A DNA stretch of 64,000 bases, taken from positions 2,485,285 to 2,549,284 of the forward strand of contig CAWAJM010000001.1 in NCBI GenBank assembly GCA_963782445.1. Reading direction: 5' to 3'. A model generated the notes under the pieces. It had not been told where the DNA came from. It was given only the letters and a program-made list of their open reading frames with translations, and searched no databases. Below are positions 1,716-4,325 of this stretch, piece after piece (positions within the stretch are counted from its first letter, which is position 1; each line of letters opens with the position of its first letter). The stretch is from an uncultured Gammaproteobacteria bacterium (lineage in GTDB: Bacteria > Pseudomonadota > Gammaproteobacteria > Steroidobacterales > Rariloculaceae). A program made the translations under genes and the position numbers.

Positions 1716-3398
1716 ATGCAAAGAACCGTGCGACCTTTTCTATTTCTGCTTCCGCTCGCGGCCCTGGTGGGCGGGCCCGGCACCGCCGCGGCCGCGGGCC
1801 CCTGCGATTGGGCGCGCGACGTGCGGCTCGTCAACGGCAAGATCCATACGATGGACGCCGAGGACCGCGTCGTCGACGAGGTCACGATCCAGGAAGGCCG
1901 CTTCGCCTATATCGGGCCCGCGCCCAAGGGCCGGCTCGATCCGTGCACGAAGGTCGTGGACCTGCACGGCCGCACGGTCGTCCCGGGCCTCATCGACAAC
2001 CACAACCACTTCGCCCTGTTCAGCCGCCGCCCGGGCTACGACGTCATGGTCGAGACGGCGACGAACATCCCGGAGGCCATGGCCCTGCTCGCGCAGCGCG
2101 CGAAGAAGGTGCCGGCCGGTGCCTGGGTCACGACGATCGGCGACTGGACACCGCGCCTGTTCGCCGAAAGGCGCGCGCCGACGCTGGCCGAATTGGACCG
2201 CGCCGTTCCGAACCATCCGGTGCTGTTCGCAACGTTCGGACCCGCCGTCACGAATACGCTCGGCAAGCAATTCTTCGCGGCTCACGGCATCACGGTCGGC
2301 ACGAACGGCGCGCTCGCCGGTCCGGCCGCCACCAAGGCCGTGAACCTGCTGCGCGACATGCAAACGCCCGAGGACAGAGTGCGCAGCGCGCGCTACGCCC
2401 AGTCCTACGTGCTGCGCTACGGCCTGACGACAAGCGTCGACATGGGCGTCTTCGCCCGCCCGGGCAGCCCGGATCTGCAGGACAGCGCCACGCTCGACGG
2501 CATCGCGAGCGCCAATCCCTGGACGGCCTACGCGCAGATCCTCGCGCTCGACCACCGGCACGAGCTCGACGAGCGCGTCCGCCTGTTCATCATCTCGATG
2601 GACAAGTCCAAGGCGCTGCCGATTCTCAAGGCGCGGCTGCTCAATGTCTTTCCCAACTTCGGCGACGACATGCTGCGCGTCTCCGGCATCGGGGAGTTCG
2701 CGACTCCATGGATATTCGCTTACAACTGGAAAGCCGGGCAGCACCCGGACAACTACGAGGCCGCGCTGCAGATGGTTGCGAAGCACGGGTGGAGCTATCA
2801 GCAGCACACCTTGTCGCTCGCGGAGGTCCAGTTCACGGCCCGGACGTACGAGAAGGTCAACGCCGTCACGCCCATAGCAGGTCTGCACTGGTCCATCGCG
2901 CACGTGCCCAGCATCGACCCTGCGACGCTCAAGGCGATGAAGGCCATTGGCGTGGGCATGGCCCTGCACGGCTGGAAGTACTTGCAGGGCGCCGAGGGGA
3001 CGCCGGCGGGCCAACCCGCGGGCCCGCCCTATCGCACGATTCTCGAGAGCGGCGCGCATGTGGGCGCCGGCTCCGATGCGGGCGATATCGCGATGCTCGA
3101 TCCCTGGTTCAACATCTATTACATGGTCACGGGCAAGGACTGCACGGGCGCGCTCATCAACGCGGGCGAGCAGGTCACGCGCGAGCAGGCATTGCGTATG
3201 TATACGGCCGACAACGGCTGGTTCTTCCGAGAAGGCGACGCACTCGGATCCATGGAGACCGGTAAGCTCGGGGATCTCGTCGTGCTGAGCGACGACTACT
3301 TCGATCCGCAGCGCGTCTCGAACGAAGGTATCAAGCGGCTCGAGTCGGTGCTCACCGTCGTCGGCGGACGCGTCGTCTACGACGCGCTGCCCCGATAG
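1716..3398 (+). CDS. Secreted amidohydrolase-3 (YtcJ-like) family protein
   Basis: Signal peptide; 'LVNGKIHTMD', 'DLHGRTVVPGLIDNHNH', 'GAGSD', 'GSMETGKLGDLVVLS', 'LTVVGGRVVY'. Confidence 0.9.
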   Translation: MQRTVRPFLFLLPLAALVGGPGTAAAAGPCDWARDVRLVNGKIHTMDAEDRVVDEVTIQEGRFAYIGPAPKGRLDPCTKVVDLHGRTVVPGLIDNHNHFALFSRRPGYDVMVETATNIPEAMALLAQRAKKVPAGAWVTTIGDWTPRLFAERRAPTLAELDRAVPNHPVLFATFGPAVTNTLGKQFFAAHGITVGTNGALAGPAATKAVNLLRDMQTPEDRVRSARYAQSYVLRYGLTTSVDMGVFARPGSPDLQDSATLDGIASANPWTAYAQILALDHRHELDERVRLFIISMDKSKALPILKARLLNVFPNFGDDMLRVSGIGEFATPWIFAYNWKAGQHPDNYEAALQMVAKHGWSYQQHTLSLAEVQFTARTYEKVNAVTPIAGLHWSIAHVPSIDPATLKAMKAIGVGMALHGWKYLQGAEGTPAGQPAGPPYRTILESGAHVGAGSDAGDIAMLDPWFNIYYMVTGKDCTGALINAGEQVTREQALRMYTADNGWFFREGDALGSMETGKLGDLVVLSDDYFDPQRVSNEGIKRLESVLTVVGGRVVYDALPR

Positions 3399-3410: not shown

Positions 3411-3986
3411 CTACTTCAGCACGGGGAGGGTCTTCCACTCCGAGAAGCCGAGCAAATCGACGACGCCGTCGGTCGCGACCTCGCTCTCGGAGCGCTCGAC
3501 GAAAGCGGCCTCGTCGCGAATCGCTACGCCGAGGCCGCCGGCCGTCTCGATGAGACGCGAATGCCCCGCGAGCACGAGCGGCCGGGCCCGGGCGAGCTTG
3601 ATAGGCACGGCGTTGCGCGCACCGACCGCCGCGACGAGCGCAAAGCGCTCGTTCTTGCCGGCTTCGACGACGGCGTTGTCCCGAACGAGCGTCACGGCCC
3701 TGCCCGCGCGCAGATGGGCGGCCACCTCATAGCGGAGCGTCAGAACGTAAAGCTTCTCGGCCGGTCCCGTGATGCGCACGCACGGGCCCAGCGCGCCTCG
3801 CGTGCTGACCTTGATATCCGCGAAGAGTGGAAAGCTGATCTGCAGCGGCTCCCCGTTGCTGACCTTGTTGAACGCCAGCACGGAAAACACGAGATCGCGC
3901 ATGACCTGCTGCTCCTGGTCGGTCTGCATGACCAGGATATCGAGATGGTCCGAGATCGTCGTCGAGGAGATGACAGCCATAGACAA
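3411..3986 (-). CDS. Divergent Cas6f/Csy4-like (RAMP-fold) protein, solitary
   Basis: About 190 aa (TTG at 3986 or ATG at 3980). Motifs are collinear with Cas6f: 'DHLDIL', 'SVLAFN', 'LQISFPLFAD', 'LGPCVRITGPAEKL', C-terminal 'GVVDLLGFSEWKTLPVL'. The catalytic His and Arg-rich helix are not evident. Recognised by eye only. Confidence 0.5.
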   Translation of the reverse strand: MSMAVISSTTISDHLDILVMQTDQEQQVMRDLVFSVLAFNKVSNGEPLQISFPLFADIKVSTRGALGPCVRITGPAEKLYVLTLRYEVAAHLRAGRAVTLVRDNAVVEAGKNERFALVAAVGARNAVPIKLARARPLVLAGHSRLIETAGGLGVAIRDEAAFVERSESEVATDGVVDLLGFSEWKTLPVLK

Positions 3987-4124
3987 CAGTTCGCTTGCTT
4001 CGCGAGGCCGTCAACTTTACTCGAATCCGGCGCACCAGCCCAAGCGTTGAGGCGCCGCGCGACACAACTGATTGCGAAAACGCGTGCGCCGAGCGGCGCG
4101 GCCGAGGCGGCGGCTCGCCGGTCT

Positions 4125-4325
4125 GTTCAGCTCTGCAATCGCTACGAGAACCCGCGTGACGGGTCGGTGCCGCGCAACTCTTTCGGTGAATGGTTCTGGC
4201 TCGAGGGCGGGAAGATCCGCAACATCCGAACCGCCATGTGTTACCCGCCGCCGGAGCGCCCCGTTCCGAACTGGCCGCCCTACGACGGCGACTTTCCGCT
4301 CCCGGCGGCCGTCATCCCGCGCTAG
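4125..4325 (+). pseudogene. 3' remnant of a secreted NTF2/SnoaL-like protein gene
   Basis: 'NSFGEWFWLEGGKIRNIRTAMCYPPPERPVPNWPPYDG' resembles the C-termini of 11676-12605 (EFFAIKAGMIQEIHAV...GW) and 37459-38508 (EVFKIHNHKIGPIEAL...GW). No start codon or 5' part. Confidence 0.5.

Follow-up and report, generated by a model that had tools for sequence, protein, structure and literature searches.

Cas6f, or Csy4 (PF09618, TIGR02563), is a crRNA-processing enzyme represented by P. aeruginosa Csy4 (PDB 2XLK/4AL5). Its catalytic pair is formed by His29 and Ser148 (PMC9850488, PMC5965381), and its hold on the repeat hairpin comes from an Arg-rich helix (10.1101/706143). In I-F3 CAST (TniQ-Cascade; 6PIF, 7U5E, 9VTP), Cas6 is an active, crRNA-bound Cascade subunit encoded in a tniQ-cas8-cas7-cas6 operon, and in V. 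cholerae a pocket between two Cas6 helices (L20, Y74, M78, Y83, F84) docks TniQ (10.1101/706143), a precedent for a helical face docking a non-Cas protein. Diverged RAMP proteins have also been described away from arrays. HRAMP, ARAMP and Streptomyces I-E plus STAND NTPase are lineage-restricted, array-less and thought to be exapted (PMC8730458, PMC12669027), and these are reported as multi-gene assemblies that combine Cas5/Cas7 with nucleases or NTPases. The trans-acting Cas6 of type III systems is reported to be encoded, or to act, apart from its effector while remaining active and serving arrays of the same genome.

The gene described here resembles Cas6f/Csy4 in length, predicted two-domain fold, SFP strand, LG-x-x-x-R strand, G-loop and terminal TVP motif. 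Unlike Cas6f, its family carries Val in place of His29 and Leu in place of Tyr176, has the Arg-rich helix replaced, includes a predicted new helix (residues 141-149), is nearly neutral in charge, shares about 12-21% identity with Cas6f and stands without operon, array or repeat. The cas8f, cas5f and cas7f genes and the I-F array or repeat that mark type I-F systems in any variant, CAST included, were not found. In contrast to the operons of the HRAMP/ARAMP type, in which Cas5/Cas7 homologs are joined by a nuclease, the present case is a lone Cas6-derived gene that has no conserved neighbor, in a genome where the RAMPs model drew a blank, and unlike the trans-acting Cas6 of type III it has no detected array to serve. 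Although of likely Cas6f descent, the family appears to lack the functional features of membership in Cas6f and in type I-F systems.

The gene and its family

The window, a 64,000-nucleotide stretch of DNA from an uncultured gammaproteobacterium, contains an open reading frame at 3411-3986 on the minus strand. A preliminary description had pointed to this frame as one of about 190 codons with motifs in Cas6f order, lying convergent to an amidohydrolase gene, and both observations were verified, the motifs being present in the order quoted. Homologs begin at the ATG at 3980, which is therefore the likely start codon and gives a protein of 189 residues (3411..3980, minus strand); the start chosen earlier, a TTG at 3986, would add two residues. 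GC content by codon position is 0.68/0.43/0.86 and the minus frame is the best coding frame of the six. On its codon statistics, its 432 homologs and a dN/dS of 0.09 against the closest genome, this is a real gene. The convergent gene at 1716..3398 on the plus strand (Amidohydro_3, PF07969, E 1e-56) ends 12 bp away, stop to stop. Among the loci compared this neighbor is kept only in the closest genome, and we rejected the amidohydrolase as a functional partner. Upstream of the gene, TAAAGT at 4014..4019 (minus strand), 33 nt before the ATG, is a putative -10 box and a weak call; the hexamer is also present in the closest genome, and a promoter/terminator consensus scan at the gene found no full promoter. 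Further upstream and divergent from the gene, positions 4122-4325 of the window (plus strand) hold an apparent 3' gene remnant, 48 residues of which are 50% identical to G000:C1:4394953-4395096 of the same genome (E 3e-4), with no counterpart in the other fetched loci.

Searching for homologs yielded 432 proteins among 3,051 candidates. The 120 best of these 432 comprise the window protein and 119 others at 68-82% identity, and the homologs among the matches listed are all unnamed or hypothetical. The gene thus belongs to an uncharacterized family of more than 400 proteins at about 60-82% identity. Genome loci came from uncultured Gammaproteobacteria in 20 of 22 cases, the other two being betaproteobacterial MAGs at about 60% identity. 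Of the 85 genomes of the host family, 25 carry the gene, always in single copy and all within two genera (6/10 in its own genus, 19/23 in the second genus and 0/52 across the other twelve genera); no paralog was found in its own genome. A search across 400 genomes of the class returned only this genome and one 16-bit match (in G421), treated as chance. When 1.84 billion representatives were searched exhaustively, 24 matches came back, namely family members, fragments, frameshifted forms and one protein of 2,394 residues with eight short matching stretches, and the most distant intact member was 52% identical. The family gene was not found in the viral contigs, phages and plasmids searched, and we rejected a reading as mobile-element cargo. 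A fusion search produced one match among 7,992 candidates (P0212), rejected as a fusion protein because its N-terminus looks non-coding; this lone rejected match is weak evidence against fusions.

The family is under purifying selection. Nei-Gojobori dN/dS has a median of 0.27 over 2,534 pairs from 78 coding sequences, falls to 0.15 over 112 close pairs and to the value of 0.09 given above for the closest genome (G009), and invariance reaches at least 98% at 60 of the 189 positions among 176 members. Inheritance looks partly vertical, with exchange possible, because the gene tree and RpoB agree on shallow sister pairs but part ways at deeper nodes (rho 0.22, Mantel p 0.049, 17 genomes). If the gene were a remnant in decay, left by a type I-F operon since lost, this could account for its being missing from 8 of the 32 other genomes of the two genera, one of them rated 100% complete, and for the split matches in two genomes, where G486:C19:113282-113867 and G487:C6:118015-118577 each hold adjacent halves of one gene rather than two copies, through a frameshift or an assembly error. 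Purifying selection largely refutes this reading: with such dN/dS values, so many invariant positions and an intact frame in hundreds of sequences, decay is extremely improbable. Exaptation rather than decay is supported by the single copy, the purifying selection and the occurrence in two genera.

Relationship to Cas6f

The window protein itself had no notable match in Pfam or NCBIfam and did not reach the curated cut-off of PF09618 or TIGR02563; likewise, a query of the ESM Atlas with the window sequence was uninformative. At the level of the family, a PADLOC scan of 111 members matched only four models, all of them Cas6f (up to 17 members, best E 0.0049), and NCBIfam TIGR02563 (cas_Csy4) matched 17 of the 111, sub-threshold. 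We collected 22 genuine Cas6f proteins as a comparison set and built an HMM from them. All 183 family sequences exceeded 5 bits (median 15.1), whereas the highest score was -1.2 bits among reversed copies and 2.6 bits among shuffled ones, and the same HMM ranked the window gene first of 4,196 predicted proteins (E 0.03), the runner-up being only 1.4 bits lower. Profile-profile comparison of the family with Cas6f (hhalign) gave E values of 3e-5 to 7e-4 at a probability of only 26-51%, and the Cas5f, Cas7f and reversed controls stayed at E >0.1. In the ESM Atlas, a family member falls in a 71-member cluster, 18% of which carries PF09618, and the neighbors of this cluster are Cas_Csy4 clusters (0.90, 206 shared features). 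Cas6f motifs, among them SFP, LG-x-x-x-R and G-x-x-x-x-x-G-x-S-x-x-x-T-x-P, are collinear across both domains with identical spacing. These tests of ancestry agree in pointing to Cas6f but, taken one by one, are weak, and the family members are kin rather than independent tests.

Structure prediction pointed the same way for one of the two domains. In an AF2 model from a family-only alignment, residues 12-100 (3681..3947, minus strand) adopt a ferredoxin fold with pLDDT mostly 70-85, and residues 103-189 stay below 50. With this model, Foldseek placed Csy4 at the top (E 6.9e-3). In VIA, too, Csy4 came first (Z 9.0, rmsd 3.4, 90 aligned), but level with other ferredoxin folds, aIF2-alpha and designed proteins among them. 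An N-terminal ferredoxin/RRM domain of the Cas6f type is thus predicted to be present. A second model, from an alignment of 60 family and 22 Cas6f rows, reached a pLDDT of 86.7. All 13 of its Foldseek matches at E<=0.001 were Cas6f-containing entries, and in VIA five I-F Cas6 chains scored Z 10.6-13.9 with the next at 8.5; the best scores (Z 13.9 and 13.6) went to I-F3 CAST Cas6. The C-terminal domain matched Cas6f (Z 13.9, rmsd 3.2, 152 aligned) only with the Cas6f-assisted alignment, and for the last 30 residues the support is from sequence. Because the 22 Cas6f rows bias this model, its C-terminal fold indicates compatibility with Cas6f and is not proof of it. The fold search proposed at the outset thus led to Csy4 unaided for the N-terminal domain, and matched Cas6f over both domains only with Cas6f rows in the alignment. 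A fold search of BFVD gave no match at E<=0.001.

Could the likeness to Cas6f be convergent, in an otherwise unrelated ferredoxin-fold protein? No match passed any curated cut-off, the unbiased Z-scores are matched by those of aIF2-alpha and designed ferredoxin folds, and the 24 matches among 1.84 billion representatives contain no intermediate sequence bridging to Cas6f. In addition, the NCBIfam PdxR (MocR-like) model matched 51 of 111 members (best E 3e-4) over a 40-residue stretch. Membership in MocR/PdxR was not borne out, with a score of 12 bits over 40 residues, where the cut-off of the 448-position model is 320, and no full-length HTH plus PLP-binding domain; we rejected a PdxR identity and, since PLP enzymes headed none of the fold searches, took the match to reflect a local resemblance in a helix. 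Against convergence stand the collinear motifs in both domains with their identical spacing and the equal length, the negative reversed, Cas5f and Cas7f controls, and the Atlas placement. We regard convergence as very unlikely, and we are confident, though not certain, that the protein descends from type I-F Cas6f. A PDB sequence search with the family profile returned one match, regarded as chance.

CRISPR context and neighborhoods

The preliminary description had called the gene solitary, without cas genes or array in the window. This now extends to the whole genome, which is 100% complete in two contigs. The Pfam models Csy4, Cas1, Csy3 and RAMPs found no match there, with positive controls, nor did home-built profiles of Cas5f, Cas7f, Cas8f and Cas1 (best E 0.27), and an array scan found no CRISPR-like array. 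The best I-F-like repeat scored 16.1 bits, compared with 17.8 in the reversed-genome control and 33-49 for true repeats. The array scan flagged two tandem repeats outside the window that are not CRISPR, one of short units at 48-bp spacing (G000:C1:1848656-1850012) and one of a 17-bp unit (G000:C1:2409844-2409962). Across the family, no I-F-like repeat was found in 563,584 bases of family loci and no array-like repeat in 98 loci (duplicates included). Cas7f (Csy3) was found in none of 23 carrier genomes and any Cas1 in six, and canonical Cas6f over the cut-off in none of 34 genomes (the two genera plus two betaproteobacteria); since most carrier genomes are incomplete MAGs, these cas results are to be read as "not found" rather than "absent". 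Weak PF09618 matches in the 34-genome scan (best E 0.007), below the cut-off and away from the family gene, were treated as chance. A TniQ search gave no match, but its control likewise matched nowhere.

Divergent Cas6f proteins that do carry the His (PF09618 E 2.5e-15 and 1.4e-8) are encoded at two fetched loci, L149 (G202:C114) and L150 (G305:C1), both of I-F type, seemingly complete and accompanied by arrays; the L150 protein is missing most of the Arg-rich segment.

Neighborhoods of the homologs vary, and no cas operon was found among the neighbors scanned. Across 88 loci there is no general neighbor, the largest neighbor cluster (20/88) being a loose superfamily, and sub-clades differ in carrying hydrolase, peptidase, ankyrin or tannase genes. 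PADLOC on 148 of 262 neighbor-cluster representatives found no core cas gene; its matches were generic ankyrin, kinase and HTH/CARF-type ones and a few others, scattered. One of these scattered matches, Csa3-like, occurs at a single locus (L059:127-507, minus strand, E 2.5e-11), about 1 kb from a family member. In both betaproteobacterial loci (L016:515-2184, L017:4985-6549) the gene follows, 54 bp downstream and in the same orientation, a pair encoding an ECF sigma factor and an RseA_N anti-sigma factor, with fasciclin and cytochrome bd genes nearby. A stress-response link is possible for this branch only. As this is one gene with no conserved partner, the term "system" used for it earlier overstates the case.

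The gene seems to be transcribed on its own. In 37 of 77 loci a TAnnnT box stops 3-8 nt short of the start, at exactly 6 nt in 29 of them, compared with 155 of 4,196 genes in the own-genome background; the 77 loci are kin, however, and not independent. The placing of this box suggests that the family gene has its own, often leaderless promoter. Flanks compared by eye showed no shared motif besides the -10 box.

These surroundings bear on the idea that the protein is a trans-acting defense accessory, either as a decoy that lures away the anti-CRISPR proteins or RNAs of phages or by modulating CRISPR systems, whether incoming or resident. Its CRISPR ancestry and the Cas1 found in six carriers would fit, and phage repeat-mimic RNAs are reported to target Cas6f (PMC11656645). 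However, with Cas7f in none of the 23 carriers and any Cas1 in only six, the role of CRISPR modulator proposed earlier is weak. The want of canonical Cas6f matches, the metabolic neighbors with no core cas gene among the representatives scanned, and the negative search of viral contigs, phages and plasmids also speak against a defense accessory, and slow evolution would be unlike that of an arms-race gene. Such a role is improbable. It is highly likely that the gene is domesticated and independent of CRISPR.

Retained, lost and new parts of the protein

The catalytic histidine of Cas6f is gone. His29 is invariant in all 22 Cas6f proteins, and a register scan aligns it with Val31 (codon 3888..3890, minus strand), which is the best register for 13 of the 22; the gap-free spacing from this position to the proline of SFP is identical to that of the family in eight. 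The residue is Val in 162 of 176 members, and a His anywhere in positions 25-39 occurs in one of 176. N38 and L35 were rejected as equivalents of His29, their mean scores being lower than that of V31. The histidine had been described as "Ala/absent"; absent is right, and the residue is Val rather than Ala. Leu177 is found in 176 of 176 members where Cas6f has Tyr or Phe176. R102, present in 22 of 22 Cas6f proteins, has no conserved counterpart in the family. In Cas6f, R102 and Q104 read the hairpin, and F155 and Y176 also have roles; these positions are conserved among the 22 Cas6f proteins.

Where Cas6f has its Arg-rich RNA-binding helix, the family has a variable linker (residues 116-132; 3585..3635, minus strand). 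This is the least conserved part of the protein (conservation 0.43), with pLDDT <50 at 121-127 even in the Cas6f-assisted model, and its 8-24 residues compare with a basic segment of mostly 35-45 in Cas6f, so that the helix, earlier called "reduced", is replaced outright. Median net charge is +1, about neutral, against +5.5 for Cas6f. Next comes a predicted element of strand RPLVL, tip G139-H140-S141 and conserved helix (residues 133-151; 3528..3584, minus strand), of uncertain register and predicted as an insert in the counterpart of the Ser148-bearing hairpin of Cas6f. Depending on register, the Ser148 position falls on H/Q140 or S141, and MAFFT puts the hairpin elsewhere; position 140 is Gln in 35 of 176 members. 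The helix, at 141-149, is predicted by the Cas6f-assisted model to be new. The G-rich loop and terminal TVP motif, by contrast, are retained (residues 172-187; 3420..3467, minus strand, by sequence alignment with Cas6f, with Leu177 at the Tyr/Phe176 position): G172, G178, S180, T184 and P186 are at least 98% invariant at Cas6f spacing.

Judged from these substitutions, canonical nuclease activity is probably lost, a conclusion we hold with good confidence. Some Cas6 enzymes do cut without His, the S. solfataricus Cas6 among them being reported to lack a conserved one (PMC5965381), and, in this family, the segments from which Cas6f builds its active site contain or adjoin many invariant polar residues. 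The protein might therefore still be an endoribonuclease acting on host RNAs through an active site that has been relocated or rebuilt without His; R28/D29/N38 together with H140/S141, D175 and K183 would be one such combination. Yet His29 maps to a hydrophobic Val, position 140 is not constant, Tyr/Phe176 has become Leu throughout, and H29A is reported to inactivate Cas6f (PMC13478208), so that a rebuilt nuclease is unlikely.

The most conserved long segment of the protein is a near-invariant helix-helix-strand (residues 73-100; 3681..3764, minus strand; mean conservation 0.94 over 176 members), with Y78, T81, R83, E85, H89, R91, R94, T97 and R100 as conserved residues, and it is a candidate partner-binding face. 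Invariant basic and acidic residues are balanced, with ten Arg/Lys to nine Asp/Glu among the 176 members. By position, not by residue-by-residue alignment, the TniQ-docking pocket of V. cholerae Cas6 would roughly coincide with this near-invariant region. Its standing as the most conserved long segment, the balanced charge, the loss of the RNA-reading helix and the TniQ precedent together lead us to favor a protein partner, or a second copy of the protein itself, docking on the alpha1/alpha2 face. Our preferred explanation, held tentatively and a little short of probable, is that of a stand-alone derivative of I-F Cas6f that is predicted no longer to cut or grip repeat RNA and would act as a non-catalytic module binding a host protein or itself.

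On this explanation, an ancestor of the two genera would have captured cas6f from an I-F locus, the rest of which was then lost. The captured gene would have gained its own, often leaderless promoter and been remodeled, keeping the two-domain scaffold and G-loop while new invariant residues arose on alpha1/alpha2 (R28, D29, N38, Y78, T81, R83, E85, H89, R91, R94) and around the old active site. With crRNA processing lost, the scaffold may have been reused as a binder whose near-invariant helical face docks the host partner, either a protein or a second copy of itself.

The ten invariant Arg/Lys and the retained G-loop count against this explanation, as they fit RNA binding too. A nuclease-dead Cas6f derivative could still be mainly an RNA binder, a post-transcriptional regulator that would hold a host RNA in its G-loop pocket and with its new arginines. 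The G-loop is retained, as are, by prediction, the RRM fold and hairpin strand, and the gene appears to have its own promoter, all of which would suit such a regulator. On the other hand, the major-groove helix has given way to a variable linker, net charge is about neutral, an I-F-like repeat was found in neither the genome nor the family loci, and the window has no Rfam match and the flanks no shared motif beyond the -10 box. Overall this reading seems rather unlikely, and the main ligand would, on balance and by a modest preference, be a protein or the protein itself rather than RNA. For binding in the Cas6f manner in particular, as proposed earlier, support is lacking because the reading helix is gone, the charge is near neutral and no I-F repeat was found; the protein is probably no longer a CRISPR-hairpin binder. 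Of the original proposal of an exapted, probably nuclease-dead RAMP protein, the descent, the solitary setting, the loss of His and the exaptation are supported; the hairpin binder is not supported, the modulator is weak and the system an overstatement.

In the literature searched, mostly non-subscription papers without the supplements in which such a family could be listed, we found no description of a solitary or domesticated Cas6, or of a lone Cas6 in ordinary cell physiology. The array-less CRISPR derivatives in the literature surveyed keep several Cas proteins and a presumed defense role. In the present case a lone enzyme of crRNA processing seems to have departed from CRISPR altogether, shedding its catalytic and RNA-reading parts, and it is near-core and slowly evolving in two genera. 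Weak Cas_Csy4 labels in metagenomes accordingly need not signal a CRISPR system. The family offers a small, testable case of Cas protein domestication and of what a Cas6 scaffold can do without crRNA. It is possible, if clearly short of probable, that a lone Cas6f has here been domesticated as a CRISPR-independent, non-catalytic housekeeping or regulatory adaptor, which would link a host RNA or protein complex through its new surface.
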